A model generated the notes under the pieces. The model saw nothing but the letters and a program-made list of their open reading frames with translations. It searched no databases and was not told the origin of the DNA. The position numbers and the translations under genes were made by a program. Positions 2,336-48,386 of a stretch of DNA of 64,000 nt are shown one piece after another. The number at the start of each line of letters is the position of its first letter. The stretch's first letter is position 1. The DNA comes from a phage. Location of the stretch: sequence record PZ452584.1, one strand, 5' to 3'.

Positions 2336-2485
2336 TTACTGCATGACTGTGATAACTGTCATGATAACACGTTGAATTCCGAACGCAAGAAGACCTCCTG
2401 CTACGGCTGGAACAACGCCTAAACCCGCCAGTAAAATGCTACCGGATACTAATGCAGCGCTTGTAATACCAATGAATGGACTCAT
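2336..2485 (-). CDS. small hydrophobic protein about 49 aa
   Basis: ATG overlaps gene 52 stop (ATGA); predicted single TM helix; below ORF-track size cutoff; read from text, approximate. Confidence 0.3.
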   Translation of the reverse strand: MSPFIGITSAALVSGSILLAGLGVVPAVAGGLLAFGIQRVIMTVITVMQ

Positions 2486-3810
2486 TTGATTTCCTCTAAA
2501 TCTTTAGTGTATTCTGTAACTACATCAGTAGTTTTCCAATATTCGTTTTCTTCTTTTTTGGCTTTAGCTTCTTCAGCAAGTTTCTTCGCTTCATCGGAAG
2601 TCATATGAAAAATATTCATTCCAACCAGTTTATCAACATAAGAAGAATACATATTGATTTTCGAAAGTTCTTCGGTCAGTTCTTTACGAGTTTTACCCTG
2701 TACAACAATTTCACCTGAAATTACTTTCTTAATGAAATGTGCCTTGGCAAAGGCTAAACGAAAAGCGGACTCAGTTTCTTTAATTTTGTTATCAATTCGT
2801 TTTTGGACATAAGTTTTACGAACTTCAACAAAGTCTTTAATTAAATCAACTACGTTATCGTAAACTTGTAGTTTTCCTTTCTCATTAATAACCGTAATAT
2901 TCTGAGAACGACGCTCAATCAACCCGAAGTCTTTCATAATTTTTGCATGACGTTCTTCTTCATTATCGCTCAAAGAATATTCTTTGCGGAATTTAACTTT
3001 GAATCCAAAACCATGCTCACCACAAGCATCATCCCATGTAATGAAGCCTTTATCTTCAAGTGGGTCTAAGATTTTACTCACATAAGTTTCACGATCATAC
3101 TTATACGGAATCTCAGTGATATTCATTTGAGTTCGTGAAGTAAACTTGTACGTTCCACGAATTTCATATTGCCCATCAATTTCAACGACTTCACCACGAA
3201 ATTCTGGGAATTCTACCTTCGGTTTAGTTACTTTCTTTCCTTGAAGAGCTTGTAATACAGCTTTCTTGACAGAAGAAACACTATGAGGAAGAATGTAAGT
3301 TGCATAACCAGTTGCAATACCGGAAACGCCATTAAGAAGAACAGTAGGAATAATAGGCAAATAGAAAGCAGGCGGAATGTGTTCTTTATCTTGATGTACC
3401 GGAGCATATTCAGTATCTTTATATACGTTATAGAAATTTTTACTTACACGAGCAAAAATATAACGACTTGCTGCTGCTTTTTGGACGGTACGAGAACCAA
3501 AGTTTCCTTGACCATCTAACAGAGGAAAGTTATTATTCCAAGTGTTAGCCATCAAAGCACCTGCGTCTTGCGCAGAGTTTTCACCATGATGATATCCAAG
3601 GTCCGCTACACCACCTGCAATAGAAGCGAGTTTGTGAAACTTATCTTTATTTCCTCGTGCCAAATCAAGAGCTCGAGCAATAACAAATCGTTGAACTGGC
3701 TTAAATCCGTCAATCATATTTGGGATAGCACGATTTTCAACCGTGTACATAGCATAAGCCAATGCTTCATTATCAATGATACTTTTTAAATCGCGATTAT
3801 TCAGTTGCAT
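2482..3810 (-). CDS. 52: DNA topoisomerase II medium subunit (GyrA-like)
   Basis: 442 aa, same length as T4 gp52; sequence recognised. Confidence 0.95.
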   Translation of the reverse strand: MQLNNRDLKSIIDNEALAYAMYTVENRAIPNMIDGFKPVQRFVIARALDLARGNKDKFHKLASIAGGVADLGYHHGENSAQDAGALMANTWNNNFPLLDGQGNFGSRTVQKAAASRYIFARVSKNFYNVYKDTEYAPVHQDKEHIPPAFYLPIIPTVLLNGVSGIATGYATYILPHSVSSVKKAVLQALQGKKVTKPKVEFPEFRGEVVEIDGQYEIRGTYKFTSRTQMNITEIPYKYDRETYVSKILDPLEDKGFITWDDACGEHGFGFKVKFRKEYSLSDNEEERHAKIMKDFGLIERRSQNITVINEKGKLQVYDNVVDLIKDFVEVRKTYVQKRIDNKIKETESAFRLAFAKAHFIKKVISGEIVVQGKTRKELTEELSKINMYSSYVDKLVGMNIFHMTSDEAKKLAEEAKAKKEENEYWKTTDVVTEYTKDLEEIK

Positions 3811-3814
3811 AAAT

Positions 3815-3955
3815 TTACCATACTAGTGAATGTAGTGCCATAATAACATCAGAAATGAAAAGCACGACTTGAATTAATCCGAACATTACTCCATAATATA
3901 GTGCTACCAATAAAGTAGCAAGGGATAATGAATAGCCCAAGATTTTCTTAATCAT
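3815..3955 (-). CDS. small membrane protein about 46 aa (T4 52.1 position)
   Basis: ATG-initiated hydrophobic micro-ORF ending just upstream of gene 52 start; read from text, approximate. Confidence 0.4.
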   Translation of the reverse strand: MIKKILGYSLSLATLLVALYYGVMFGLIQVVLFISDVIMALHSLVW

Positions 3956-4106
3956 TAGTAGATAACAACACAAATGTTAAATATGCACACATACCCTGGG
4001 CTAAAGCTTGTGAAAACACACTGCTAGCATCGATACAGATAGTTAAAACACATGCTACTATCCAACAAATAAATGAAATAACTCCTAATAATTTTGCGAT
4101 ATTCAT
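3948..4106 (-). CDS. Ac-like small membrane protein, 52 aa
   Basis: ORF track trimmed to internal ATG (M11) preceded by GAGGAG; paralog of the adjacent 51-aa ORF (shared ...SVF.QA.AQG... core). Confidence 0.5.
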   Translation of the reverse strand: MNIAKLLGVISFICWIVACVLTICIDASSVFSQALAQGMCAYLTFVLLSTND

Positions 4107-4116
4107 AATATTCTCC

Positions 4117-4272
4117 TCAACTATTTTTAGAACCAATGTACGCGAATAATGATAAAATCGCTAATACGCCCTGAGCTGATGCTTGCAAAAATACTGAAGT
4201 TTCTCCAGTTATTACTGTTCCGATGCATAAAAAGAACCAACAGAAAAAGGCTATACCGTGAACAAATTTCAT
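4117..4272 (-). CDS. ac: Ac-like small membrane protein, 51 aa (acridine-resistance protein position)
   Basis: ATG-initiated 51-aa hydrophobic ORF immediately downstream of stp, the T4 ac position and size; read from text, approximate. Confidence 0.4.
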   Translation of the reverse strand: MKFVHGIAFFCWFFLCIGTVITGETSVFLQASAQGVLAILSLFAYIGSKNS

Positions 4273-4279
4273 ATTTTCC

Positions 4280-4360
4280 TCACTGGCGTCCGAAGACGCC
4301 TTTGGTTTTAAGATTGTTACGATAGAACTGCATCACATGTTCGTTATGGAAATTACTCAT
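4280..4360 (-). CDS. stp: Stp peptide (26 aa), activator of host PrrC anticodon nuclease
   Basis: Translation [26 protein letters not shown] matches T4 Stp as I recall it; ATG overlaps ndd stop (TAATG); below ORF-track size cutoff. Confidence 0.8.
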
Positions 4361-4803
4361 TAATATGCCTGCAAAACAAATTTAAAGTTATCAGCCAACA
4401 TACGGTTCATTTCTTCAAGTGTTTGATACTCAGAATGATGATTACGAGTAAACGCTAAAGCTAACTGACCTTTTCCAAATCCTGTCGTCAGAGGTTTCAT
4501 CTTAGAAGCAGGCAGATAAAATACTGTGTATACCATATTGTTATTTGCAATAGTACGCGCAAGTTGAGACCGGCGTTGACGAATATGACTTAAAACCGCA
4601 CTAAATCCTTGCTTAGAACGCTGATTACCTACATAAAATCGTGCAGATACGCATGAACCATCGAATTCACTTACTAAAAAGTAAAATCCAGGTTTAGACA
4701 AAATGTCTTTATGCGGGGTTCCCAAAAACCATTCACCACCCTTAATTGTACCAATAACAGTTGCGCCTGCATTATTCAGATCAGTAACAGTCATATATTT
4801 CAT
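4360..4803 (-). CDS. ndd: Ndd, nucleoid disruption protein
   Basis: ORF track trimmed to internal ATG (M17, MKYMTVTDL...) with AGGAAA RBS; sequence recognised as T4 Ndd. Confidence 0.85.
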
Positions 4804-4863
4804 TTTAATTTCCTCTAAATTATTTTCTACTCCAAGGCCGCATGAATACACACGGCCGATAAA

Positions 4864-4980
4864 TTAATCGTCGCAGTCGACGCTCAATTCCCAAAACTCT
4901 TCTACGGTATAAGTTTCAGTATCATTTTCAATACAGAAACGTTCATTACTGTTATTTGCTAAAGTAGCGTTAACTGTCAT
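4864..4980 (-). CDS. micro-ORF about 38 aa
   Basis: ATG overlaps stop of upstream micro-ORF (ATGA); read from text, approximate. Confidence 0.25.
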   Translation of the reverse strand: MTVNATLANNSNERFCIENDTETYTVEEFWELSVDCDD

Positions 4981-5078
4981 TTTCTCGCTAGTCTCTTAAG
5001 AGGTGAAATACGAATTAACTGATCACCATTATCTAAACAAAAAATTTCACCAACTTTTACATCTTTAAAAATTTTCAT
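4977..5078 (-). CDS. micro-ORF about 33 aa
   Basis: ATG with GAGGTG RBS; read from text, approximate. Confidence 0.25.
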   Translation of the reverse strand: MKIFKDVKVGEIFCLDNGDQLIRISPLKRLARK

Positions 5079-5086
5079 AATTCACC

Positions 5087-5194
5087 TCAGGGAGTATAAA
5101 ATCCAAATGCAGTTGTTGACCATCCCATCCAATATGGGATATTTGCGCCAATGTAAAATACAAGAATATAAAACCAAATGCTTAGTAAATTCAT
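5087..5194 (-). CDS. hydrophobic micro-ORF about 35 aa
   Basis: ATG overlaps stop of upstream ORF (TAATG); predicted TM peptide; read from text, approximate. Confidence 0.25.
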   Translation of the reverse strand: MNLLSIWFYILVFYIGANIPYWMGWSTTAFGFYTP

Positions 5195-5391
5195 TATTTT
5201 ACACCATTCCAAATTGTTTCAACCACAGATTTCAAACCATTTTGGTGAATATCCATTCCGACAACTGCCATCAAATAAATTCCAACTACAACTGAACCTA
5301 AGGCAAAAATCAGCATGAAAATGAATAAAGCCGGAAAAATATTATCGAAAAACCATTCAATAAATGTAAAAGCACTACGTTTACGCTTCAT
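5194..5391 (-). CDS. small membrane protein 65 aa
   Basis: ORF track trimmed to internal ATG (M8, MKRKRSAF...) with GAGGAAA RBS. Confidence 0.45.
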   Translation of the reverse strand: MKRKRSAFTFIEWFFDNIFPALFIFMLIFALGSVVVGIYLMAVVGMDIHQNGLKSVVETIWNGVK

Positions 5392-5398
5392 ATTTTCC

Positions 5399-5512
5399 TC
5401 ACATAAATCCAAAATAAGCGTTTAATACATCAATCATTAAAACGATTGGGAATATACTCAAAACTATTAGTATTATAACTACATTCCATATAGCTTTAAT
5501 AATCTTTTTCAT
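5399..5512 (-). CDS. small membrane protein 37 aa
   Basis: ORF track trimmed to internal ATG (M46) that follows the PeSL leader and GGAGG RBS; the listed N-terminal extension is read through the leader. Confidence 0.4.
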   Translation of the reverse strand: MKKIIKAIWNVVIILIVLSIFPIVLMIDVLNAYFGFM

Positions 5513-5514
5513 TT

Positions 5515-5590
5515 TCTGTTCCTCCATAGTTGATAGGGTAATAGTACCACGGAGGAACAGTCTTGTAAACCACTTTTTTAAAAATATTCG
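5515..5590 (-). repeat. PeSL-like cassette copy 2
   Basis: GTTTAC-N18-TACTAT plus CCCTATCAACTATGGAGG leader variant; approximate. Confidence 0.65.
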
Positions 5591-5787
5591 TAATAAATGT
5601 GAATACCAATCACTACCGCCGAAACTTGCGCAACCCACCACGCACAAGCAATAAGTACAGAATTCAAAATTTTCATAATAACCTCATTACAAAAGTAAAT
5701 GTTAAACAAATTACTGGAATACTAATTAACCAAATAAAACACCACCATAGTGAACTCATAGTTCAATCTCAACGATTTTCATTTTAC

Positions 5788-5994
5788 TCAATAATCCGCT
5801 AAAAGATCGACGATTGCATCACGAAGACACTTATTCGCAATACGTTTAAGAGCAATTTCAGTTTCTGGAGCATTTTGAATAATCATTGAATTCAATTCAG
5901 CCTCAGCAAACTGAAGTTCTTTAACTAATTCAGCTTTATATTTTCCTTGCCCTTTCTTAGCTTTTGCTCGTTTTAATTCAGCTGTAGTAAACAT
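5788..5994 (-). CDS. hypothetical protein 68 aa
   Basis: ORF track trimmed to internal ATG (M34) following PeSL leader and GGAGAA RBS. Confidence 0.5.
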   Translation of the reverse strand: MFTTAELKRAKAKKGQGKYKAELVKELQFAEAELNSMIIQNAPETEIALKRIANKCLRDAIVDLLADY

Positions 5995-5996
5995 TT

Positions 5997-6080
5997 TATT
6001 CTCCAAATCCGTATCAGTTGATAGTTGTATAGTACCACGGTCCTTGTGGTATGTAAACTGTTTTGTGAAAATTTTTAAAT
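5997..6080 (-). repeat. PeSL-like cassette copy 3
   Basis: GTTTAC-N18-TACTATACAACTATCAACTGATACGGATTTGGAGAATAAAATG; approximate. Confidence 0.7.
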
Positions 6081-6632
6081 GGAAAGATACCATCCGTTGT
6101 AGTTGCTTTTTCTTACAACCTTACGAAGGTCTTCTCTATCACCGATGAACTTCGGAGTGTACTGGATGACACCTGGATGAATTTCTTTAGTGTTGAATAT
6201 AATTATACAGTCAGCGACTTGATGATTCAGAATGGGCCCTAGATTTATTCCAGAGCCATATGGATACTCTCCGCTGCATCCGGTTGTTACCGAAATCCAA
6301 CGCGAGTCAGTTTGATGTGTTTTGACTTCTACACGAAGCCCACAGTATTTTGGATGCGCCAATACATCCCATGCATATGTATATGGGTCATTAACATCCT
6401 CTTGGCCTTTGTTAACATACCCACTCAACCAATCTGCTACCACATACTCGGCATACACAGCAATACGACATCTTTCGATAACTTCTGCCTTATCCTGATT
6501 TGGATTTTGTTTTAAAGAGTATCTTGCAGTATCAGCAATTTTGGCCTTCATTTCACTAGTCAAGTCACTGTTAGATAGGGTAAATAACGGAATCTGAAAT
6601 AGTCTCTGCAAACCCGGATTCGTTTTCTGCAT
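6075..6632 (-). CDS. denB: DenB, endonuclease IV
   Basis: 185 aa, same length as T4 DenB; position between rIIB and ndd. Confidence 0.8.
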   Translation of the reverse strand: MQKTNPGLQRLFQIPLFTLSNSDLTSEMKAKIADTARYSLKQNPNQDKAEVIERCRIAVYAEYVVADWLSGYVNKGQEDVNDPYTYAWDVLAHPKYCGLRVEVKTHQTDSRWISVTTGCSGEYPYGSGINLGPILNHQVADCIIIFNTKEIHPGVIQYTPKFIGDREDLRKVVRKSNYNGWYLSI

Positions 6633-7879: not shown

Positions 7880-7890
7880 AATTTTCCTTA

Positions 7891-10068
7891 TTAGGCCGCA
7901 AGGGCCTTCATAGTTTTAGCGATTTGGGAAACTTCATCATCACTTAAAGAGTTGCGATAACCGATGAAGTCGGAAACAATACGGAATTTCTTGGTAAACT
8001 CAGCAACCATTTTATCACTATTTTTTGAAGCATTATTTGATAATACATCAAAAAGATTAGTTACTGTCCAGATGTCATGACCGATGGTATCTTTTCCACC
8101 GTTGAAATATACACCCTGTAATGAACTAACCATATTAGCGAGTCGTGTATATTCTTCAGAAACTTCATCTACACTGAAGTACTTCATCATAAAATCTAAC
8201 TCAGGATACTTGATAATTTTATCAATATATCGTTTAGCTGAACTTGAATAACCTACATACTTATCATAATCTACATCATCAAAAGCATCTACATATAAAT
8301 CACGCAGAGTTTCAAAAATACATTGGCACTGACCAAGTTCTTTTACCTTTTTCTGTAAAAGCGGACGAATAACATAAAATTCATTAATGCCAATAAGATT
8401 AGCCATACGAATCAAAATATTCATAGATGGATGACAAAGAGATGTAGTACCATCCATAGAGAAAATATCAGAACGATGCATGTATGCTACATAACCAGTA
8501 ATTTCATCTGCTTCTGATGTGAGCGTAAATAGTTCCTCTTTTTCCCATCGCCCATCTTTAATTTCAAACTTAAATGCTGTAGCAGCTTTAGGACGAGGAG
8601 CTTTACTTTTAACTACCTTTGGAATATAGCTTTTAACTAAAGCTTCGATTTCTGACAAATAATGAATGTTAACTTCATCACTTTCAAACATCGCCATAAT
8701 ATCAGGAAGCAAATCAATCTGCGATTCTACTTCCGGATTAATAAACAGAAGACGCTCATTGTGATGAATATTTAAAGTGTTATTAAATTCACTATCATCT
8801 AACGCATGTGCTAATCCACGGACAATATTAACACGATTTTTAATATTATCAATAACAATATTAATTTTTGTCGTATTAATACCAAACAGACGATAACTTG
8901 ATGCAACGGCTGAAGTTTCATGACTTTGTTTAATGCGTTTCAGTCGAGGGTCAAGATTTACTTCATACACAACTCCTGCATTGCATAACTTACTATCAGG
9001 TTCAAACATACTCTGCATCTTCTTATATGACAGATTTTTAGTCGTGAATTTGACTGAATTACTAATCATATAATCTCGAGCAGAATACCCCATCTTCATC
9101 AATTCACGATATGTATGACGGGGAGATGTAGATTCTTTAAATCGTTTTACATCTTCATTAAATGCTTTCTCACTGAGTTCTTTAACTCGTTCAATAATAT
9201 TTTTACGAGTACGATCATCCAATGAAAGAGCCTCACGAGATGGAGCAATATCAAGTGAACCCATTGGAAACTTAATGTAATTCACTTCATTACGGATGCT
9301 TAGCCAGTTACGGTCTCTAATAACACCGTCGATAGGATAAACAATACCGCCATAGATAGCATATAATCCACCACGATCAGGCCAGTATCTTTCTGGATTT
9401 ACGCCGTAATAATCATCAAAATCCGGAAAATAATCAATTTCGCGGTCAAGACCATTAATGATAGCCAAATCTTTGAACGGTCGCATGATATAAGAAACTT
9501 CATAAGCAAAGTTTCTAAAGTCTTTTTCTTCAACTGGAACTACGATTTCAATACCAGTTTTATCATCTGGACCCATTTCTTTTACGAATGTAGGTTTAAT
9601 CTGCGGACCGTCACCATCCATGTAAGCTACATAACCACGAATTTCGCCTTTATGATATGAAGTAATACTAAATGTATCAGTATAACTAAACGGAGATTTA
9701 GAACCTAAACCAAATCCGCCAATGAAATCGTTAGATTCAGCCTTAGATGAACTGAAGTATGAATTATACAGACCAGGAGAATTATCATCACCCTGAATAT
9801 CAAAATCACTCATACCCGGACCAAAATCTCGGCAAACAAATCGTGGATCTAAACGTCCAGGAACTTGAATGATAAATTTTTCAGGATTTCCATTGAGAGC
9901 ATGGGCATCAATCATGTTGGTAATCAATTCACGGACTACTGCGCGAATTTTGTTTGTATACAAATCAGATGACAGAATTTTAAATACTTTAGGAGATGCT
10001 GTGATGCTAAATGCTTTTGATTTAGAACCATTACCAAGAATTGTTTCTTTTTCAGTGGTGATAATCAT
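7891..10068 (-). CDS. rIIA: rIIA
   Basis: 725 aa, same length as T4 rIIA; sequence recognised. Confidence 0.95.
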
Positions 10069-10078
10069 AATTTCCTCA

Positions 10079-10282
10079 TTAATTCATATTACGCTTAATA
10101 ACTTCAGCAACTTCTAGTAGTTCGTCTTTAGTTGCGGTGTCGGATTGAATTTTATCTCTAATATCTTTAAAGCGGTTTTTAAATTCTTCGGCTTCTCCCA
10201 TATCGAAAAAGCGTTGAATGATTCTATATTCTCGATGAACTGCTTTATCAAAAAGTTCTAAATTTACTTTATATGATTTCAT
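10079..10282 (-). CDS. hypothetical protein 67 aa (rIIA.1 position)
   Basis: ORF track; lies between early promoter and rIIA. Confidence 0.65.
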
Positions 10283-10307
10283 TTCAATATCCTCATTTGC
10301 CCAATTA

Positions 10308-10337
10308 ATTATACCACATCCTTGTGGTAAAGTAAAC
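10308..10337 (-). promoter_or_regulatory. early promoter (GTTTAC -35, TATAAT -10) for rIIA.1/rIIA
   Basis: Minus strand GTTTAC-N17/18-TATAAT overlapping the 3' end of gene 39; approximate. Confidence 0.6.
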
Positions 10338-12157
10338 TACTGGCTCATCCATTCTTTACGAAGGTCAGCATTATCTCCCATGAGCATTTCAAAAAGCTCT
10401 TTCCAGTTCTCAGGAAGTTTAACAACATCATATACTGGGTTTTGAATCATCTCACGATATTCAGATTTTTCCAAAGAGCCAAGTCCTTTAATATAACGGA
10501 TGCTATGTTTAGGTAGAGCATCTTTGGCACTCTCATATTCAGCGACTGTATAAAACCATTCTTGTTTTTTACCGACCTGAGCGATGATTACAGGAGTTTT
10601 GACAAAGCGAATTCGTCCTTGCTCAAACAATTCTGGCCAATTACTAAAAAATCCGAGCAGAGAAGGATAAATGCTTCCTAAACCATCATGGTCAGCATCA
10701 GTCATAATAGCAATATTATGATAATTCAAGTTTTCAGCTTTTTCACCAAGAACTAATCCAGTGATTGCGCAAATATCAAACAATTCTTTGTTTTTAAGCA
10801 TATCGGCATATGACATACCCCAGCTATTAAGAACTTTACCGCGCAATGGATAACCACCATGAAGTTCTTTATCACGAACATCAATAAGATATCCGATAGC
10901 AGAATCACCCTCAGTCAAGAAAAGAGTAGTATCAGCATCTTTACCACAAAGATTCGCTTTAATATGTTTATGAACCTTAGCTTTAGAAGCCTTTTTAGCT
11001 GCTTTAGTTTCTGCTGCTTTTTCTGCCGCCAATTTACGAGCCAAGGCAGCTTCAATAATTGGCATTAAAATTGCTTCATTATTTAGAATAGCACGTGAAA
11101 TCTTTTTAGCATCAAGCTGAATATGACTACGAATTTCACCAAATGGAGAAGTAAGTCGTTCTTTAGTTTGAGAATCAAATCGCATGTTTTTCATATCACG
11201 AACAAACATAACGATAGTCAAACATTCTTTAACGCGTGCTTTAGTTACATCAATTTTGAACTTACGTTTGATTTGTGGAATAAGGTCTTCACAAATATCA
11301 TCCATAACACAATCAATGTGATGGCCACCATTCTTAGTATGAATGTTATTCACATAAGTTAATTGACGAAATCCATCAGGTGAACGACCAACCGCAATAG
11401 AACAATTTTCTTGTTCTTGAACGATAGCATGTTCATCATACTGCCGTGCATATTTCTTAAAATTACCCTGAACCTTTTTACCATTAAAGGTAAATTGAAT
11501 ATCAGGATAAACAACAGCAAGTGTCTGGAGACGATCTAGTGTAATGTCAAGATAAACTTGGGACAGCTCATTAGTTTCAAATGACATAAAATCAGGAATG
11601 AAAGTAACACGGGTTCCTTTCCATTTTCCAGGAATAGTTTCCCAGGATTTATTTTCCATGCCATTTGAACAACGAACTACAATATTATTTTGACCATCGC
11701 CAGTTTCACCGACAAACATCACAGAAAAAATGTTAGTTAAACTAGAACCAACACCATTCATACCACCGGTGACACGTTCTTTATCATCACCAAAGTTACC
11801 ACCCGCTTTTGGAATAGTCCAAGCAGCAACTGGACCAGGAATTTCTTCACCGGTAGGTGTTTTAACCATCGCTTGTGGAATACCACGACCGTTATCTTCA
11901 ACTGTTACTTGATTGTTTTTGATAGTAACATTAATTTTATTTGCGAATTTAAACTTAGTACGAATACCTTCATCTACTGAGTTATCGATAATTTCATCAA
12001 TAAGCTTAACAAGACCAGGTACATACTGAACACTTTCCCATTTACCAAACAGAAAGCGCTCATGCATTTCATTAGCTGAAGAGCCAATGTACATGCCACT
12101 ACGCTTTTTGATATGTTCAATATCGCTCAGAATTTTAATTTCATTCTTAATCATCAC
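10337..12157 (-). CDS. 39: DNA topoisomerase II large subunit, unsplit (GyrB-like ATPase plus Toprim)
   Basis: 606 aa single ORF covering what T4 encodes as gp39 plus gp60; T2/T6-type arrangement. Confidence 0.95.
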   Translation of the reverse strand: MMIKNEIKILSDIEHIKKRSGMYIGSSANEMHERFLFGKWESVQYVPGLVKLIDEIIDNSVDEGIRTKFKFANKINVTIKNNQVTVEDNGRGIPQAMVKTPTGEEIPGPVAAWTIPKAGGNFGDDKERVTGGMNGVGSSLTNIFSVMFVGETGDGQNNIVVRCSNGMENKSWETIPGKWKGTRVTFIPDFMSFETNELSQVYLDITLDRLQTLAVVYPDIQFTFNGKKVQGNFKKYARQYDEHAIVQEQENCSIAVGRSPDGFRQLTYVNNIHTKNGGHHIDCVMDDICEDLIPQIKRKFKIDVTKARVKECLTIVMFVRDMKNMRFDSQTKERLTSPFGEIRSHIQLDAKKISRAILNNEAILMPIIEAALARKLAAEKAAETKAAKKASKAKVHKHIKANLCGKDADTTLFLTEGDSAIGYLIDVRDKELHGGYPLRGKVLNSWGMSYADMLKNKELFDICAITGLVLGEKAENLNYHNIAIMTDADHDGLGSIYPSLLGFFSNWPELFEQGRIRFVKTPVIIAQVGKKQEWFYTVAEYESAKDALPKHSIRYIKGLGSLEKSEYREMIQNPVYDVVKLPENWKELFEMLMGDNADLRKEWMSQ

Positions 12158-12182
12158 TTATCCTCGTTTGGTTTCGGGAATA

Positions 12183-12207
12183 TTATACTCCGGTAATCAT
12201 AAAGCTA
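12183..12207 (-). promoter_or_regulatory. middle (MotA-dependent) promoter candidate for gene 39
   Basis: Minus strand AGCTTTA (near-MotA box) 12 nt upstream of TATAAT; approximate. Confidence 0.45.
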
Positions 12208-12224
12208 AAGGCCCGAAGGCCTTT
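12207..12224 (-). terminator. C(UUCG)G hairpin upstream of gene 39 promoter
   Basis: AAAGGCC-UUCG-GGCCUUU on minus-strand RNA; approximate. Confidence 0.5.
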
Positions 12225-12484
12225 TATTTAAAACGAATAGTTGAATCCTTAAAGAACAGCCCAGAACATACTGTTCCTTCTACTTTCTGCCCAGTAGGTC
12301 CAATAGCACGAAATCCAGTATGCTGGAAATCATTTTCAGAGCAACCGAACCAATTATATCCAGTGATTTCAATATTAGTAAAACCGCTTGAAGACAAAAC
12401 TTTAGTTGCATTATCAGCATCAGTACATCCTACTAAAGACACTACTAATACTAATGCTGCAATAGAACGATTAATATATTTCAT
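12224..12484 (-). CDS. putative lipoprotein 86 aa
   Basis: ORF track; N-terminal signal peptide with lipobox LVGC. Confidence 0.6.
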   Translation of the reverse strand: MKYINRSIAALVLVVSLVGCTDADNATKVLSSSGFTNIEITGYNWFGCSENDFQHTGFRAIGPTGQKVEGTVCSGLFFKDSTIRFK

Positions 12485-12486
12485 AA

Positions 12487-12663
12487 TTACCCTTTAAGCA
12501 AGTCGTAAAATCCGCCATTCACATGCTTAGGAGCGGAAACTAACCGAATAGCAATCCGATGACAATCAGGACATACATCAGTATCCCTTTCAGAAATTTT
12601 CTTGATTTTTTCGTATTCTTTTGCACAGTCTTTGGATTGACATTTATAATCATAAAGAGGCAT
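12487..12663 (-). CDS. FmdB-like zinc-ribbon protein about 58 aa
   Basis: MPLYDYKCQSKDC...CPDC pattern (two CxxC pairs); ATG start, TAATTATG junction with downstream gene; read from text, approximate. Confidence 0.45.
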   Translation of the reverse strand: MPLYDYKCQSKDCAKEYEKIKKISERDTDVCPDCHRIAIRLVSAPKHVNGGFYDLLKG

Positions 12664-12665
12664 AA

Positions 12666-13085
12666 TTATTCCTTAAAGTGAGCTTTCAACATCTGATACA
12701 AGGACCATGCCTGTTCATTATTTTCAATAGTAACTTTCATGACCGGGAATTCTGTGAAATCTTCTATTTGTTCTTGCTCTTCCTGTTCTTGCTCTTCAGC
12801 TGCCTGATATGGATTTTCCACTTCATCAAAGAACCCAGCTTCGTTAGTAGAAAGCCAGATAAAGTTTTCGTCAAGGATATCAGCGCCGGCACAACGTTTG
12901 AGTACACCTGTGGATGTCATAATTTTAGTAGGACGCCCAAGATAATCAGCATCTAAAATTTTAAAAGGTTTCATACCTAAACGCCGTGCGTAGATTCCGT
13001 TATCAGTATGGTCTTTAATAAAATTTTCTTGAGCTTGTTTATTTTTAAATTGATACCATTTATTAACTTCAAATTTAATAGCCAT
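12666..13085 (-). CDS. hypothetical protein 139 aa with acidic EQEQEEQEQ tract (T4 goF position)
   Basis: ORF track; position between cef and gene 39 as for T4 goF (141 aa); identity not verified. Confidence 0.65.
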
Positions 13086-13300
13086 TAATAAATTTCCTTC
13101 CAGTAAGTTGTGCCATCTTCAGTAATTTCACGAAATACACCGTAAATTGGTTGTTTATCACCAACCTTTTCATACACATAAACCGAAGTCAAGTGAGTAA
13201 ACTTAACGGTATGTTCCTTTTGAACTACTACCAAATCTGGATCGAATAATACATCTTCAAATTCGTCATTAGTACAATTCTGAACAATTTTACGTTTCAT
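13085..13300 (-). CDS. cef: Cef-like protein (tRNA processing modifier)
   Basis: 71 aa, same length and position as T4 cef. Confidence 0.65.
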
Positions 13301-13313
13301 TACAATTTCCTCA

Positions 13314-13583
13314 TTAATTGAACAGTGGAGCGATGCGTTTCAGAAGAGCAGCAGCACCTTTGGCAAATTTTACATCATGAAAAACAGTTTCTTCTTCCGT
13401 TACAACACGAGCTTTAATGTTTTCACAATCCCAATTTTTGCGAACAATCTTCAAAAGCTGCAGTAAATCTTTACATTCAGCAATATCGATAACACATCCA
13501 CGAGAATCTTCCATTATCGCACGATAACCGTAAGCCATACCATAATCGTTGAAAGATTGCTCGATGATAATTAAGTTTTCCAT
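13314..13583 (-). CDS. hypothetical protein 89 aa
   Basis: ORF track trimmed to internal ATG (M5) after a degenerate PeSL leader. Confidence 0.55.
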   Translation of the reverse strand: MENLIIIEQSFNDYGMAYGYRAIMEDSRGCVIDIAECKDLLQLLKIVRKNWDCENIKARVVTEEETVFHDVKFAKGAAALLKRIAPLFN

Positions 13584-14244: not shown

Positions 14245-14784
14245 TTAATTTAAAATAGCTACCACCGCACTACGAGGTACTACGCTAAAATCACCTGCAT
14301 GAACAACGTTCAGAAGTTCAACACCATCTTCAATCCATTGGTCTGTTACCCAACCACAGACCGAAATAAATGGAGTCTTGATAGCTACCGCATGAGTTAG
14401 AAGGTCAGTAGGATCGCATTCTTGAAAGAGGATGAACTCTGCTTCAAAAACTATAGTTTTAATTACTTCATCATTATCTAAACGGCGTACTCGAATCACG
14501 TAAGCTTTATTCTTATCATACCAGTTACTTTTTGAAAAGCTTTTAACCACAAACTCGCCTTCACCAAAAACATTAGTCAATGCTTTATAACCCAAATTTA
14601 GTTCAGTAGTTTTAATTTCAGTTTCAACCAGTTTGTAGGTTTTGCCGATTTCAATAGCGGTAGTCATAGTAGGTTCCTTAATTTCCAGTGGTTTAACAGG
14701 GCATACATAAGTGCTTACAACATCAAAATCAATCAGTTTAGCTACCGGATTTGGTATGTATTCAGGATTATAATTAAATTTCAT
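14245..14784 (-). CDS. MotB paralog 179 aa
   Basis: C-terminal third aligns with the adjacent MotB-like protein (..TDQW[IV]EDGV.L.NVV..G...V[IV]P..). Confidence 0.7.
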   Translation of the reverse strand: MKFNYNPEYIPNPVAKLIDFDVVSTYVCPVKPLEIKEPTMTTAIEIGKTYKLVETEIKTTELNLGYKALTNVFGEGEFVVKSFSKSNWYDKNKAYVIRVRRLDNDEVIKTIVFEAEFILFQECDPTDLLTHAVAIKTPFISVCGWVTDQWIEDGVELLNVVHAGDFSVVPRSAVVAILN

Positions 14785-14786
14785 AA

Positions 14787-15287
14787 TTATCTCATTTCAA
14801 TAAAATCTACGAGTTCAGCATGCGATTTGCGGAACATTACTTGATGCCCACCAATGATAACTTCATCTTCAGGAACTTCGTATACAGCGAGATAAAATCC
14901 TTTAGAAGATAATTCTTCCCGCTCTTCTTGTGTGAACCATCTCATCATATCATATTCGCTAGCGAAAGCAAAATGATAAAGAGCTATAAACCATCCTGGA
15001 ATATGATATTCTACTCCAACATAATCTTTCTTGAACTTAGTATTAATTACTATATTAGCGTTTTTAACTAATAGTTTATCTTCGTGTGGTAAAGGAATTC
15101 TTTTATTATTATCGCTATGATGCATAAAATTAGGTCTGTCATAACCTACGTGTAATAACCACTCTTCGCTCCATGAATCTATTATACTCCTGTACGGCGT
15201 TATTTGAACACAAAGATTTCGACGTATTGTTATAGCATCTTCATAATCAAGAATACTAAACGATGATTCAACACGATAAATTTTCAT
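14787..15287 (-). CDS. hypothetical protein 166 aa
   Basis: ORF track; early promoter immediately upstream. Confidence 0.65.
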   Translation of the reverse strand: MKIYRVESSFSILDYEDAITIRRNLCVQITPYRSIIDSWSEEWLLHVGYDRPNFMHHSDNNKRIPLPHEDKLLVKNANIVINTKFKKDYVGVEYHIPGWFIALYHFAFASEYDMMRWFTQEEREELSSKGFYLAVYEVPEDEVIIGGHQVMFRKSHAELVDFIEMR

Positions 15288-22738: not shown

Positions 22739-22768
22739 ATAAATTCTCGCGGCTTTTAAGACGAGCTG

Positions 22769-23287
22769 TTAATAACCTCGGTCTTGACGAGCGAAATTTT
22801 CAGCATTTTTCAGATAATAAAGTTTAAAGATTTCTTCAGCTGTAAGACCAAGACCCTGGAACATATTCAGAACGAAATGAAGAATATCAATCATTTCAAA
22901 TTTAATTTCTAACTGGTCTTGCGGAGACAAATCAGTAATCAGAGTTTCACGACGTTCACCATGCTGCGACTTCCAAGGTTTCCATACAGCAGATGCATCT
23001 TTTTCGCCATTGCTCATACCACCAAGAGAAGTCAGAAGTTCGCGGAATTCATCATCAATATAATCTTTCTGATTACGCAGCCAATCAACAACTTCACCTG
23101 CAGTAGCCAAATCATCAGGATGACGGTTATATTCAGGTTTATCTTTAGCTAAACGAATCTGTAGAGATTTCTGCATATCAAGCATTACCTGCAGCGGGTC
23201 TTTTTCATCACCGAGAATATCCCAATATTCATTTTGAGCTTTATCAGCGCCTTCAATCAGTTGTGAACATTCATTAAAGTATGCCAT
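22769..23287 (-). CDS. 56: dCTPase/dUTPase gp56 (MazG-like NTP pyrophosphatase)
   Basis: ORF track trimmed to internal ATG (M32, MAYFNEC...), about 172 aa like T4 gp56; the listed N-terminal extension is non-coding read-through. Confidence 0.85.
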   Translation of the reverse strand: MAYFNECSQLIEGADKAQNEYWDILGDEKDPLQVMLDMQKSLQIRLAKDKPEYNRHPDDLATAGEVVDWLRNQKDYIDDEFRELLTSLGGMSNGEKDASAVWKPWKSQHGERRETLITDLSPQDQLEIKFEMIDILHFVLNMFQGLGLTAEEIFKLYYLKNAENFARQDRGY

Positions 23288-23321
23288 TATTTTTCCTTTC
23301 AATTCATGGGTTAGTAGATTA

Positions 23322-23345
23322 ATTATACAATAAATATATAAAGCA
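23322..23345 (-). promoter_or_regulatory. middle (MotA-dependent) promoter candidate for gene 56
   Basis: Minus strand TTGCTTTA (MotA box) 11 nt upstream of TATAAT; approximate. Confidence 0.5.
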
Positions 23346-23358
23346 ATAAGGAGGACAT

Positions 23359-27757: not shown

Positions 27758-28931
27758 TAAATTCTTCCATATCACTTAGCTGATCTAGGTCAGTTTCTAA
27801 ATCAGCCGCTGATTTACTTTTACTTTCTGGAGATTTAAATTTTTCAACTTTTGAGTTAATTAATTCATCAACTTCCGCTTCAACAATTTCATTACTATCA
27901 ATAGCACCTAACTGATAAGCACGTTTAATAGCATCTCGGAATGGTTGATGCTTAAATAAAGGACCCCAGAATGTAGTGCAGTTAGTATCTTTTGCACGCC
28001 AAGATTTTTCTTCGCGAATCATCTCGCCGGTTTCTTCGTCAAGAAATTCACGAGCATACCAACCATTCTTAGGTTTTACAACAAATCCTAATTCTAGAGC
28101 CATATCTAACAATCCAGAATAAGGATCGATACCACCGTCAAATTTAACATCAATAAAGAATTTACTTTTTTCTTTAACGGTACGAGATTTTTCTACATTT
28201 AGAACAAATTGATACCCCTGAAGATCAGAACCATCTTTAATCTGACGTTTACCGATAATGAATACAGTATCAGCCGAATACATTACGCCTGTACCACCTG
28301 TCATCACGGTTTTACTAAACATTTCAATTGTTTCAATTGTATGGTTAACCGCAACACATGGAATATTTTTAATGCTAAAGTAAGGAGTAACAATACGGAA
28401 TAATGACTTCAGTGATTTAGCACGAGTCATATCTGCCACAGATTTTTCATTCAAGGCATCTTCCGTTTCTTTCTTAGAAGCCATATTACCGATTGAGTCG
28501 ATGAATACAATAACTTTTTCACCGCGCTCAATAGCTTCAAGCTGATTCACCATATCAATTTTCAGCTGTTCAACTGACTGGATTGGCGTATGAATTACTC
28601 GTTCCGGGTCAACTCCCATGGATCGCAAATAAGCTGGAGTAATACCAAATTCACTATCATAGAATAGACAAACCGCGTCAGGATATTTGTTTAAATATGC
28701 CGCAACCATAGTCAAAGACATATTTGATTTAAAGTGTTTAGAAGGACCTGCAAAAATGGTTAAACCAGACTGCATACCGCCATCAATCGCACCAGAAATA
28801 GCGATATTAAGCATTGGGATTTTTGTACGGATTACATCCTTTTCATTAAAGAATTTAGATGTAGTCAGTTCAGCAGTCATTTTAGAAGTGGAAGCTTTAA
28901 TCAAACGGGATTTTAAATCTGCAATAGACAT
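27750..28931 (-). CDS. uvsX: UvsX recombinase (RecA-like)
   Basis: 393 aa; near-identical to T4 UvsX across the length as I recall it. Confidence 0.95.
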   Translation of the reverse strand: MSIADLKSRLIKASTSKMTAELTTSKFFNEKDVIRTKIPMLNIAISGAIDGGMQSGLTIFAGPSKHFKSNMSLTMVAAYLNKYPDAVCLFYDSEFGITPAYLRSMGVDPERVIHTPIQSVEQLKIDMVNQLEAIERGEKVIVFIDSIGNMASKKETEDALNEKSVADMTRAKSLKSLFRIVTPYFSIKNIPCVAVNHTIETIEMFSKTVMTGGTGVMYSADTVFIIGKRQIKDGSDLQGYQFVLNVEKSRTVKEKSKFFIDVKFDGGIDPYSGLLDMALELGFVVKPKNGWYAREFLDEETGEMIREEKSWRAKDTNCTTFWGPLFKHQPFRDAIKRAYQLGAIDSNEIVEAEVDELINSKVEKFKSPESKSKSAADLETDLDQLSDMEEFNE

Positions 28932-29008
28932 TCATTTTTTCCATAGGCATCATTATATTTTCCTCACTGGTTAAAGATAGAGTAATTATAACACAATAAA
29001 TTTAGGCA

Positions 29009-29851
29009 TTAATCAACTGCTATTGGATGAATAGCATTAAACTTATGAAATGCTTCTGATTTTTCTTTACGCGAAACACACATGCGAAGAACCTTTAATG
29101 GCTCGTCTTCTTCACCCAACGATTTTCGTTTTTCAATATTAGAAGTTTTCCAACGAGCTTGCTCTGGAAACTCTCTATTGATTTGCTCAAGCGCTCTATT
29201 ATGTTTAGAATTACTACGAATTGAACTACACCCACCAGGAGCTTGTGCTTTTCCAGATACAACCAGATATTTGAACAAGGCCAAATGCGGATAACCTTGA
29301 TTAATTAAATTGAGAAATGCATACATATCTTCGCACAAATCAATTTTTCCATACCCAATTTGTTCTGTCGTAAGTTTTCCAAGGTCATACCATGTATTCG
29401 TGAATCCATATGAATTTTCACGATAATTACCCCAAGATGAAGTAATTTTAAAAATTGGTAGGCGAGCATGACCGTGATAATACCCGCAATCCATGGCATC
29501 TTCGACGTATTGAATCAATTCATAGAACTGTTCATGAGTCAATTGATTGACTTTATCCACGCAACGACGGTCATCTCTTTTTCGCATTGAACTCATACGA
29601 ATAGTAGTATCATCGTCAATCATCCAGATTCGTTGGCCTGCATACATATCAGTAATTGCTTTACGAGTACCGGCAATTCCGTTTACATCATCAGGAATAG
29701 TTATAATTTTAGCTCTAGACCCATAGGCATCATAATAAGCTTTTTCTTCATGTTCACGCACTACAATATGGGGTTCATAATCAGTCGGAAACATATCAAG
29801 GGCAGAAACTGCCCCGACACGCTGATAACTTGGAATTACGAATTGAATCAT
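29009..29851 (-). CDS. putative glucosyltransferase, DxD (GT-A-like); candidate beta-glucosyl-HMC alpha-glucosyltransferase
   Basis: ORF track trimmed to internal ATG (M3), 280 aa; occupies the T4 beta-gt slot between uvsX and 42 but is not T4 beta-gt; WMIDDD motif. Confidence 0.55.
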   Translation of the reverse strand: MIQFVIPSYQRVGAVSALDMFPTDYEPHIVVREHEEKAYYDAYGSRAKIITIPDDVNGIAGTRKAITDMYAGQRIWMIDDDTTIRMSSMRKRDDRRCVDKVNQLTHEQFYELIQYVEDAMDCGYYHGHARLPIFKITSSWGNYRENSYGFTNTWYDLGKLTTEQIGYGKIDLCEDMYAFLNLINQGYPHLALFKYLVVSGKAQAPGGCSSIRSNSKHNRALEQINREFPEQARWKTSNIEKRKSLGEEDEPLKVLRMCVSRKEKSEAFHKFNAIHPIAVD

Positions 29852-30588
29852 TTCCACTCACCTTTATAGTCTTTTTTCACAATATGAGTTTCGCCAGTAT
29901 TCCACCAATGATCAACCAAGTAAAAATGACGAGAATATACATGAAGACTTCCAACATTCCATATAATAGAACCTGCTTTATACTGACGAGTTGAATCGCC
30001 GACATTCAAATCAGATACTAATTTATCTAATACGTATTTTTGCCATGCATAATCATTACGGAATCCGAAGACCACGTCATTTGAGCGCATGCTTACTACT
30101 GCATTGACTTTCTTATCACGAATCAGGTACTGTACTGTATTAGTACACATGAAATCTGACATACCATCTTTATTGTAGTCAAATTGCATGGATGGACGAG
30201 TATAAATCATGATACCACGTCGAGAATCAGGATTTTGACCAAGTTCAGCTAAACACATATCATACTGGGCATAGTTATCTTCTGACCAAATAGCCCAACC
30301 ATAATTCGAGTTAATTTCGCCTTTAGAAGATGCTACCTGCTGCCAAATCTTTGGTGTTTCGCCTGGAATATCTTTAACAAACAAGCTCTTAGATTTATAC
30401 CATTCAAGTTCACGCTGAATGTATTCATCATTAAGAGCGCCAAAAATAAACGGTTCATCTGCTACAAATGATGCGCCAATAATTTCAATAGTTTTAACAC
30501 CAGTTTTATCAACTACGAAATCTTTTTCTTTTAATGCAAGCCCCAAATGAAGACGGATTTCTTCAACTGTCATAGAGTCACTAATCAT
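29848..30588 (-). CDS. 42: dCMP hydroxymethylase gp42
   Basis: 246 aa, same length as T4 gp42; thymidylate-synthase-like fold. Confidence 0.95.
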   Translation of the reverse strand: MISDSMTVEEIRLHLGLALKEKDFVVDKTGVKTIEIIGASFVADEPFIFGALNDEYIQRELEWYKSKSLFVKDIPGETPKIWQQVASSKGEINSNYGWAIWSEDNYAQYDMCLAELGQNPDSRRGIMIYTRPSMQFDYNKDGMSDFMCTNTVQYLIRDKKVNAVVSMRSNDVVFGFRNDYAWQKYVLDKLVSDLNVGDSTRQYKAGSIIWNVGSLHVYSRHFYLVDHWWNTGETHIVKKDYKGEWK

Positions 30589-39838: not shown

Positions 39839-40693
39839 TCACAATGAAGAAAATTCTTTAACTAAAGCCTGTAATGAAGCCTCTATTGGATATCCATTCT
39901 TAACTAACATTTTCCTAAACATCACATGTTTAGGACGATTATATGATATCCACAATTCATACAATTTATCTTTATTATCCCAATGATAGCCTTTTCGTCG
40001 AGATGCTATATGAGCTTTTCTAATCTCCGGATTTTTCCAACTAGCAGCTACTGAATTTGATATAGCTATTTTATATTCAGGTTTTGATAAAGCAGCACGA
40101 ACAGCCTTTTGGTGTTTAATTTTATTTTCTTCGTTATTAAACCATTCCCTTGAAGCCATTGAAATTTTTTGTTTTGTTTTAAAATTATTTAATCTTTCTT
40201 TGTTATCTTTCCTATTTTTTGCTACTGAAAAATATTTTAATGCCCTTTCTCTAGCAGCATTTCTATTTTGCGGATTTGAATAATATTGTTGAAGCCTTTT
40301 TGATATTGTGTCACTTACATCTTGTTTTATAAAACTATATTCAGCAGCTATTAAATCAACTTCGGCTAAAGATAAATTTTTATATGTTTTTCCTGACATC
40401 ATTCTATTTAAAGCATTTAGCATTTTTCCATTTTTACCTTTTGCTAATAAGAAATGTGCTTTAAAATGATTAAAATGACTTAAATTAACTAAATTCCATG
40501 TAGATTTTAAATATTCAGGAAATATTGATTTAGGAAGCACGTGATGTGCTTCCGTTTTACCTGGAGTTTTAACAGTTGAATTCATAGAAATAAAATTAAT
40601 GTAAGACTTGGCGTCTTCTTCACTCAACGCTAATTTTTCAACTAATTCCTTTATTAAAAATTCATCATTAATGTCAAGTTTAAAATTCTTCAC
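39839..40693 (-). CDS. putative HNH homing endonuclease (Mob-like) 284 aa
   Basis: HH...N...H pattern (EAHHVLPKSIFPEY...NLVNLSHFNHFKAH) plus repeated basic DNA-binding modules; paralog of the ORF at 48376-49215; inserted between 46 and 47. Confidence 0.7.
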   Translation of the reverse strand: MKNFKLDINDEFLIKELVEKLALSEEDAKSYINFISMNSTVKTPGKTEAHHVLPKSIFPEYLKSTWNLVNLSHFNHFKAHFLLAKGKNGKMLNALNRMMSGKTYKNLSLAEVDLIAAEYSFIKQDVSDTISKRLQQYYSNPQNRNAARERALKYFSVAKNRKDNKERLNNFKTKQKISMASREWFNNEENKIKHQKAVRAALSKPEYKIAISNSVAASWKNPEIRKAHIASRRKGYHWDNKDKLYELWISYNRPKHVMFRKMLVKNGYPIEASLQALVKEFSSL

Positions 40694-41140: not shown

Positions 41141-42156
41141 TGTGTTGCCTCTACATATAACTGATTTGCATATTGAATAAGTGCTTCACGGTCAGAATCA
41201 GTGATGTCTGGAATTGCATTAATGTATTCTTCCATCAACGTCTGAAGAGATTGAACTTCAACTTCTTCACTGTCATCTGACTCGACAGAGTTATCAATCT
41301 TTGACACAACTCGTAATGAATGCACAACTTTTTCTAGTTCAGATTCGAACTTCGTCAGATTTTTGTCTACTTCAGTTACTATAACACGTACTGATAGATT
41401 TGTAAAATCTTTATAGTCAATTTTTCCTTTAAATGGATAATGAATTCTACGATGCCAGGTAGTATTGTTTGGAATAAATTCCATTCGTTCTGTTTCTGTA
41501 TCAAACATCCAGAACCCGCGAGGGTCATTCTCGTCACCTGCAGTTAGTGTCCATGGTGTCCCAATATATCTGACGTTAGCAGCCTCAGAGATAGTATGGA
41601 AGTGACCAGACCACACCTCTTTATAAGTCTTAAGGAAATCAGGTTCAAGACCATGAGATTTCATTCCTTTATAAAAATAAAATCCATTCAGTTCCCAGTG
41701 ACCAACACAAAAAGAAGCAGAAGAAGTTTTTATGTGCTCGAGAATTTCACCAGTATTTTCTTCACACATCCAAGGAATTAAATCAATTAAACATCCGTCA
41801 AAATCTACTGTAGTAGGCTTATCATATACTTTAACATTAGGATATTTAGCCAAAAGCTCAGTAGAGGCATTTGGATGCATTACATTTTTGTAGTGGAGAT
41901 CGTGATTTCCTACAATAGTATGTAATGTGATTCCAGCGTCATCAAGCATTTGAACTATTTCACGGGCAAACTCCATAGTTTTATGTGTGATTGCTTTTCG
42001 CACATCAAAAATATCACCATATTGAATCCATACAGTAATTCCATTTTTCTTAGAATATTCTATCGCTTGCTTAATTCCATCAATTTGAATACCGCGAATC
42101 CACTCATCATCAGCTTTAACGCCTAAATGCCAATCACCCGAGTTTAGTATTTTCAT
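41137..42156 (-). CDS. 47: recombination exonuclease gp47 (Mre11/SbcD-like phosphoesterase)
   Basis: 339 aa, same length as T4 gp47; metallophosphatase motifs DWHLG, GDIFD, GNHD. Confidence 0.95.
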   Translation of the reverse strand: MKILNSGDWHLGVKADDEWIRGIQIDGIKQAIEYSKKNGITVWIQYGDIFDVRKAITHKTMEFAREIVQMLDDAGITLHTIVGNHDLHYKNVMHPNASTELLAKYPNVKVYDKPTTVDFDGCLIDLIPWMCEENTGEILEHIKTSSASFCVGHWELNGFYFYKGMKSHGLEPDFLKTYKEVWSGHFHTISEAANVRYIGTPWTLTAGDENDPRGFWMFDTETERMEFIPNNTTWHRRIHYPFKGKIDYKDFTNLSVRVIVTEVDKNLTKFESELEKVVHSLRVVSKIDNSVESDDSEEVEVQSLQTLMEEYINAIPDITDSDREALIQYANQLYVEATQ

Positions 42157-42766
42157 GGTGTCTTTTCCATCCTAATTTAGCTGCTTTTGAAACTAGTTCT
42201 TTAATTTTTCCTTTTGTCCATTCAGGACCAGGAGGTTCATGACATAACATTTGCTTAACTCCGTTATTATACCATTTTTTACCTTTATTATGTGATGAAG
42301 CTTTAAATTTATTTGACCTTCCTTTTACATAACCTTCTGGAATATAAGGCAAAAAGGCAGATTTTCCTGTTAATGGATCATGTGAATGTATATTTCCTTT
42401 ACAATTATGAGAACCATATAATGGATGATTTTGTCCTTTATTATCTCTTCCAAATGAACCTTTTGGAGCAGCATATGACATATTAAAGAATAATGGATTT
42501 TTAACTGCATCATGCAATCGTTGATAATATAACTCGCATTTAATAGCTTCTTCACGCGTATCAAATTCAGCTAAAATGCATGAATCAAATAAGTGAGGAT
42601 TATCTGAAAGCTCTTTATTATAAATTTTCTTATACTTTTTAGATAAAACTGAACCATGATATCCAGCTAAATGCCTATCTAAAGACGTAGATCCAATATA
42701 AAAAGGAGGAAGTTTATCTCCACTATATATATTGTTAAATAAGTTATATATTTTTTCATATATCAA
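42134..42766 (-). CDS. GIY-YIG-like homing endonuclease (Seg-like), possibly degenerate
   Basis: N-terminal NIY-x8-YIG with downstream R and E, then N.P.YG linker motif typical of free-standing phage endonucleases; no in-frame ATG before the catalytic motif (TTG start listed). Confidence 0.5.
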   Translation of the reverse strand: MIYEKIYNLFNNIYSGDKLPPFYIGSTSLDRHLAGYHGSVLSKKYKKIYNKELSDNPHLFDSCILAEFDTREEAIKCELYYQRLHDAVKNPLFFNMSYAAPKGSFGRDNKGQNHPLYGSHNCKGNIHSHDPLTGKSAFLPYIPEGYVKGRSNKFKASSHNKGKKWYNNGVKQMLCHEPPGPEWTKGKIKELVSKAAKLGWKRHHENTKLG

Positions 42767-44138: not shown

Positions 44139-44204
44139 TTAATATCCTCTTTGTTTTGGTTTATTTTACCAAAAATTTATAAAGCAATATAGGAGCCGAA
44201 GCTC

Positions 44205-47915: not shown

Positions 47916-48386
47916 TTAATCATGTTTCCACACCCCATCGGTATTTGACCAAAGTCGCTGATTATCTGATCCTCGCCACAGCTTTTTGGTCGGAAGATTT
48001 TTCTCATACTTCCCATCAATAATAACATCAACATATTTAAGCATTTCTAGTTGTTTAATATCTTCAAACTTATATCCTGTCCACAACCAAATGCTTTTAT
48101 TGGGATAAAGATTTTTTACTGTTTGAACAATGCAATGAATAACATCTCGATTGTCAGGATAAAGAGGGTCACCTCCGGTTATAGTTAATCCTTCTATATA
48201 ATCATTATTCAAACATTCAATTAATTGTTCTAGTGTTTCACCAGTGAATGGAATACCATTTCTAGCATTCCATGTTGATTTATTATAACACCCTTCGCAT
48301 TTATGCAAACAACCTGTAACGAAAAGAACTGTCCTGCATCCAGGACCATTAACAAAGCAGCACGGGTATATTCTGTCATAATTCAT
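47916..48386 (-). CDS. nrdG: NrdG, anaerobic ribonucleotide reductase activase (radical SAM)
   Basis: 156 aa, same length as T4 NrdG; Cys cluster C..GC......GC.KCEGC. Confidence 0.9.
   Translation of the reverse strand: MNYDRIYPCCFVNGPGCRTVLFVTGCLHKCEGCYNKSTWNARNGIPFTGETLEQLIECLNNDYIEGLTITGGDPLYPDNRDVIHCIVQTVKNLYPNKSIWLWTGYKFEDIKQLEMLKYVDVIIDGKYEKNLPTKKLWRGSDNQRLWSNTDGVWKHD

Follow-up and report, generated by a model that had tools for sequence, protein, structure and literature searches.

Structures and activity have been published for the type II topoisomerases of phages T6 and T4, with PDB entry 8ylu originating from that work, and the enzyme has two subunits in the T2/T6 type and three in the T4 type (PMC11461880). 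In T4, an insertion with a ribosomal bypass divides the large subunit between genes 39 and 60; the initial annotation of the DNA studied here had described this arrangement, and the T4 record agrees with it. In the approximately 1.1 kb concerned (T4 2794/2807-3910), a 43-aa tail is encoded for gp39 and a unique 30-aa head for gp60; they also contain mobA, a coding gap of 50 nt (T4 2803-2852) and, in diverged form, a copy of the topoisomerase segment that was replaced. The unsplit gene has been described as the ancestral or "parental" state; its segment at this place includes the nick and homing site of the MobA endonuclease, and the published breaks of the clade 1 MobA insertions lie at amino acids 466-473 and at D490/G491 plus 9 nt (Manning & Atkins, bioRxiv 10.1101/2022.08.31.505936). 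The T4 sequences themselves vary in this region. Compared with T4T and most other T4 isolates, the reference T4 (NC_000866, 2790-3920) has 11 additional nt in the mobA region, at 98.7% identity. Its mobA is a pseudogene, annotated as the fragments 60.1 and a 37-aa mobA, consistent with a published note that mobA of laboratory T4 was pseudogenised, whereas mobA of T4T is intact and encodes 272 aa.

We analysed a stretch of phage DNA of 64,000 nt (record PZ452584.1), which we refer to as the window. Here the large subunit is encoded by one continuous gene, and rIIA.1 and rIIA were found directly downstream of it on the same strand, as the initial annotation had described. The locus comprises the following features:

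12155..12223, minus strand: leader between genes 39.1 and 39 with a GC-rich hairpin (GGCCTTCGGGCC), a TATAAT box and a GAGG Shine-Dalgarno sequence; identical to T4 by sequence comparison
10337..12154, minus strand: gene 39, uninterrupted topoisomerase II large subunit (ORF, alignments, Pfam, PDB 8ylu)
10283..10336, minus strand: spacer of 54 nt separating gene 39 from rIIA.1; its T4 counterpart, the gene 60-rIIA.1 spacer, is colinear
10079..10282, minus strand: rIIA.1, 67 aa (Pfam T4_RIIA1, E = 1.4e-33)
7891..10068, minus strand: rIIA, 725 aa (ORF; 97% DNA identity to T4 rIIA; annotations of the matching records)

The longest ORF at this locus runs from 12157 to 10337 on the minus strand and has 606 codons if counted from a GTG (12155-12157), which lies in frame and one codon upstream of the ATG at 12154. 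This GTG had been included in the length of 606 aa given for the gene before; the single continuous gene stands, but its length needs correction. The annotated gene 39 start in T4, T2, T6 and RB32 is the counterpart of the ATG at 12154, a GAGG Shine-Dalgarno sequence precedes this ATG by 7 nt, and the 90 nt around it show no difference to T4 and two mismatched bases to T2, both located well upstream of the Shine-Dalgarno sequence. Because the ATG is the start used in the relatives, the upstream sequence is conserved and the GAGG is in place, the predicted product most likely has 605 aa, read from the ATG at 12154 to a TAG stop codon (10337-10339) in a gene of 1818 nt. A simple terminator scan made no call for the hairpin in the leader (12155..12223). 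Upstream of the leader, in the region 12224-12663 of the minus strand, gene 39.1 encodes 86 aa here as well as in RB32, T2 and T6 (annotated with 65 aa in T4) and is directly followed by 39.2, which encodes a zinc-ribbon protein of 58 aa.

Blastn showed colinearity with T4 on both sides of the place where T4 is split: window 7880-10685 corresponds to T4 1-2806 and window 10737-13375 to T4 3911-6557, while megablast puts the first break at window 10672 (T4 2793). The approximately 1.1 kb of T4 are represented in the window by 51-64 nt of plain coding sequence. At the junction and in its vicinity, the following elements could be located:

10673..10736, minus strand: parental coding segment in place of the T4 MobA element, codons about 474-495 (ENLNYHNIAIMTDADHDG LGS), delimited by the megablast/blastn breakpoints 10672/10685 and 10737 versus T4 2793/2806 and 3911
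10679..10684, minus strand: adjacent codons for Gly491 (GGT, 10684-10682) and Leu492 (TTA, 10681-10679), read from the sequence
10691..10699, minus strand: Toprim DxD motif D486-A487-D488, from the translation; on the gp60 side of the T4 split
10910-10912, minus strand: Toprim glutamate E415 (LTEGDSA), from the translation; on the gp39 side of the T4 split

Thus, two codons that directly follow each other here are separated in T4 by the 50-nt coding gap, which lies between the Gly46 take-off codon (GGA) and Leu47 of gene 60. The topoisomerase-derived parts, the flanking genes and the spacers match T4 closely, whereas the gp39 tail, mobA, the gp60 head and the coding gap are all missing from the window. 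The two breaks, after A473 and a few nucleotides past G491, agree with the clade 1 positions of Manning & Atkins, and we see no substantive difference to the "parental" Topo2L genomes of that clade, such as RB14, in which the gene is unsplit and the MobA site intact.

On the protein level, residues 1-473 of the gene 39 product aligned locally to T4 gp39 1-473 without gaps and with seven substitutions. Residues 472-605 aligned to T4 gp60 27-160, with clear identity from about gp60 residue 31 onwards, and gp60 residues 47-160 are reproduced without any change. The C-terminal region equivalent to gp60 is therefore present, and the earlier statement that one ORF covers both the ATPase and the Toprim regions is borne out. 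Compared with T2, T6 and RB32, the protein carries 2, 1 and 1 substitutions, respectively, at a DNA identity of ~97%. As 1-2 residue changes are set against ~3% base changes, nearly all of them synonymous, the sequence comparison indicates that gene 39 is under strong purifying selection. Residue 173 is T here and D in T2, RB32 and T4. The likeness to the gene 39 ("60plus39") of T2, T6 and RB32 extends from the length of 605 aa and the uninterrupted Toprim domain to the leader, rIIA.1 and rIIA downstream and the gp52 partner.

In Pfam searches, the gene 39 product matched HATPase_c (E = 1.9e-9), DNA_gyraseB (E = 1.5e-13) and TOPRIM_C with scores above the curated cut-offs; the Toprim match itself was weak and below the cut-off (19.8 bits vs 23.1). 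The best structural match was the T6 topoisomerase II (PDB 8ylu), identical over the full length in 604 of 605 residues; the sole mismatch, H526, is also the lone mismatch to the T6 protein. Solved structures of GyrB, ParE and Top2 align along essentially the entire protein, the matches to the N-terminal half including their ATPase domains, whereas their Toprim regions align to residues about 405-603. That the predicted protein contains the ATPase, transducer and Toprim regions is confirmed by these alignments to type IIA topoisomerase structures along its full length. E415 and D486-x-D488 share one reading frame here, i.e., the Toprim domain is continuous; since the T4 split falls between E415 and the DxD motif, the T4 insertion cuts this domain. 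The partner subunit is encoded in the same window:

2482..3810, minus strand: gene 52, partner subunit of 442 aa with a GyrA/ParC-like DNA breakage-reunion domain (Pfam DNA_topoisoIV, E = 1.8e-76)

The sequence features of a type IIA topoisomerase B-type subunit are hence found: the GHKL ATPase and, after it, the transducer (DNA_gyraseB), an uninterrupted Toprim domain that includes the glutamate and the DxD motif, a C-terminal tail, and gp52 as the A-type partner in the same genome. Because the window contains a single gp39 gene together with the gp52 gene, the predicted enzyme is of the two-subunit T2/T6 type. Its gp39 would unite the GHKL ATPase, the transducer, the Toprim domain and the C-terminal tail in a single chain and would pair with gp52 to form (gp39)2(gp52)2, as shown for T6. 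From the near-identity to the characterised T6 protein we infer both this assembly and an ATP-dependent DNA relaxation activity.

Traces of the MobA element were sought across the whole window. The 56-nt sequence of T4 from take-off to landing site, including the 50-nt bypass, had 0 matches in the 64 kb when up to 3 mismatches were allowed, and blastn-short with the T4T insert returned only chance matches of 13-17 nt. Using tblastn, the C-terminal extension of gp39 found no match anywhere in the window, the N-terminal extension of gp60 matched only through its 20 topoisomerase-homologous residues, and no MobA ortholog was found with the intact T4T MobA as query. No Rfam family matched the window at gathering thresholds. 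At the locus, there is neither a split ORF with element-derived extensions as in the MobA/gene 60 cassette nor an HNH gene of the MobA type between topoisomerase halves, as no insert is present, nor a 50-nt gap after the glycine with GGA take-off and landing codons, stop codon and stem-loop. Breakpoints, bypass search and tblastn all agree in this respect, and the absence of the bypass and of a mobA-type insertion, proposed from the first reading of the sequence, is well founded. The interval between gene 39 and rIIA, which had been suggested as the place for remnants of the bypass, was misplaced for this purpose, since the T4 bypass sits inside gene 60; the 54-nt spacer at 10283-10336 has no extra sequence compared with the T4 60-rIIA.1 spacer and holds a sigma-70-like promoter match (TTTACT-17-TATAAT) and the Shine-Dalgarno sequence of rIIA.1.

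We are almost certain that this is the ordinary "parental" gene 39 of a Tequatrovirus, coding for a GyrB-like subunit in one polypeptide, at a locus in which the MobA element was never fixed; none of the results speaks against this. Gene 39 would be translated conventionally, without recoding, and is to be annotated without a ribosomal bypass or join. A single ORF would also be seen if the element had once been present and was then lost, the ORF being re-created, a "hit-and-run" course of the kind suggested for one clade of Aeromonas phages (Manning & Atkins, bioRxiv 10.1101/2022.08.31.505936). Such a history is compatible with the free recombination among Tequatroviruses and with the mosaic make-up of the window when compared with T2, T4 and T6. 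However, the published hit-and-run ORFs keep element-derived C- and N-terminal extensions, of which tblastn detected none here, the protein having 605 aa like those of T2 and T6, and the 64-nt segment is the parental one, T2-like except for one base, and not the diverged homologous copy of T4. With no remnants of the extensions and a parental segment, we rejected a loss of this kind as very improbable; a variant of it, clean replacement via recombination with an uninvaded relative, would leave no signal.

The "parental" reading of gene 39 also fits the distribution of the unsplit state among the relatives. A 171-nt probe across the junction matched 495 records of a phage collection. In 452 of these, the junction was uninterrupted, and in the remaining 43 only one side was matched; using the T4 cassette as the query recovered 43 records as well. 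Accordingly, about 91% of the sequenced close relatives are without the MobA/bypass cassette. The uninterrupted set includes T2, T6, RB14, RB27 and RB32 as well as many Tequatroviruses of Escherichia, Shigella, Yersinia and Salmonella. A mis-assembled or misannotated continuous ORF in a genome that is really split as in T4, for which we found no supporting point, is less probable still and was rejected, as the reading frame is kept across the junction, the conserved Toprim motif is encoded there and the junction is continuous in 452 independent phage records including the five named phages. The unsplit gene 39 as such is already known; it is textbook biology of the T-even phages and annotated across hundreds of genomes. 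The use of the present sequence lies in the correct annotation and in one more "parental" sequence for comparing MobA homing and the origin of the gene 60 bypass.

From the unsplit gene, the initial annotation had placed the phage with T2/T6-like genomes. T2 and T6 do have the unsplit gene (1818 nt in both records), but because this is the state of the majority and the parental one, it is not sufficient on its own to assign the phage to their group. The placement nevertheless agrees with other gene-content markers in the window. Over window positions 7880-57000, the coverage was 94% versus T2 or T6 and 84% versus T4, with an identity of ~95.8% in each case. Lacking from the window are T4 segF, dam, segA, b-gt, mobB and the nrdD intron with I-TevII. 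The dam region (919 nt in T4) corresponds to 40 nt at 23308-23347 and segF (696 nt) to 67 nt at 22739-22805, and tblastn found no Dam or SegF homolog anywhere in the window. At 44127-44153, 27 nt are found for the 864 nt of T4 with mobB, and the group I intron of nrdD with I-TevII is absent, with 2 nt for 1035 nt in T4. The 1.9 kb with segA and b-gt of T4 are replaced at 28920-29865 by a T2/T6-type glucosyltransferase gene (29009-29857, minus strand), whose product of 282 aa belongs to the TAGT family of glycosyltransferases and shares 99% identity with its T2 and T6 counterparts in this position; the sequence suggests that hydroxymethylcytosine glucosylation follows the T2/T6 pattern. Furthermore, the HNH gene that T6 has after gene 46 is present with 99.6% identity. 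One feature runs against the T2/T6 pattern: T2, T6 and RB32 have an extra ORF of 318-372 bp between 39.1 and 39.2, which is missing in the window as it is in T4. The best 25-kb match to the window in the phage collection was only ~95% identical. By its gene content in the window, the phage is T2/T6-like and a mosaic Tequatrovirus of its own. Among the neighbours of these sites, gene 56, adjoining the dam/segF gap, is only 79% identical to T4, and nrdD (49212-51029, minus strand) is a single uninterrupted ORF of 605 aa.

In T4 and a minority of its relatives, a MobA homing-endonuclease element has replaced about 64 nt of the parental gene by about 1.1 kb. This insert splits the Toprim domain, adds tails to both halves and puts the 50-nt bypass just after Gly491. 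The 64-nt target segment of our phage equals that of T2 except for one synonymous base, the first position of the Leu492 codon, which is TTA here and CTA in T2. T4 also has TTA at the equivalent codon, and the difference falls exactly at the T4 bypass insertion point. For T2, nicking and invasion by MobA have been demonstrated (Bonocora et al. 2011, cited after Manning & Atkins, bioRxiv 10.1101/2022.08.31.505936). Since the target is that of T2 but for one synonymous base, and since T2 is invaded, the phage would most likely be a recipient for MobA homing when it infects a cell together with a phage possessing an intact mobA. We keep this statement conditional because of the TTA difference at the bypass point and the reported importance of the bypass region in MobA recognition. 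Provided that MobA reads this base, the TTA allele of Leu492 might be a natural homing-site variant, partially resistant or partially sensitive; we regard this as rather unlikely, but if true, the allele could help to map MobA recognition and to see why the bypass protects.

The only MobA-like matches in the window were two distant HNH paralogs (39839-40693 and 48376-49215), each about 29% identical to MobA. The first, an ORF of 284 aa on the minus strand, is situated between genes 46 and 46.1, where the window has 861 nt inserted compared with T4. It is a paralog of MobA/MobB/MobC, 99.6% identical to the T6 ORF at the same position, had no match in the Pfam search, and probably encodes a free-standing HNH homing endonuclease. 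The second, an ORF of 279 aa on the minus strand between nrdG and nrdD, lies at the place of T4 mobC. It showed weak NUMOD/I-HmuI-like matches and 36% identity to the T6 HNH ORF just mentioned; a different mob-type endonuclease thus seems to occupy the mobC slot. A further ORF of 210 aa (42134-42766, minus strand) belongs to 596 nt that are inserted between gene 47 and a-gt here and missing from T4. As it matched GIY-YIG weakly (E = 7.7e-4, short of the cut-off), it may encode a seg-type homing endonuclease. The adjacent a-gt is present and 91% identical to that of T4. Finally, two stretches of the motB region, 13376-13575 and 14358-14811, have no megablast match to T4 and constitute a local mosaic of accessory early genes; at 14245-14784, an ORF of 179 aa takes the place of T4 motB.1 and resembles the RB32ORF010c-type gene in position and length.
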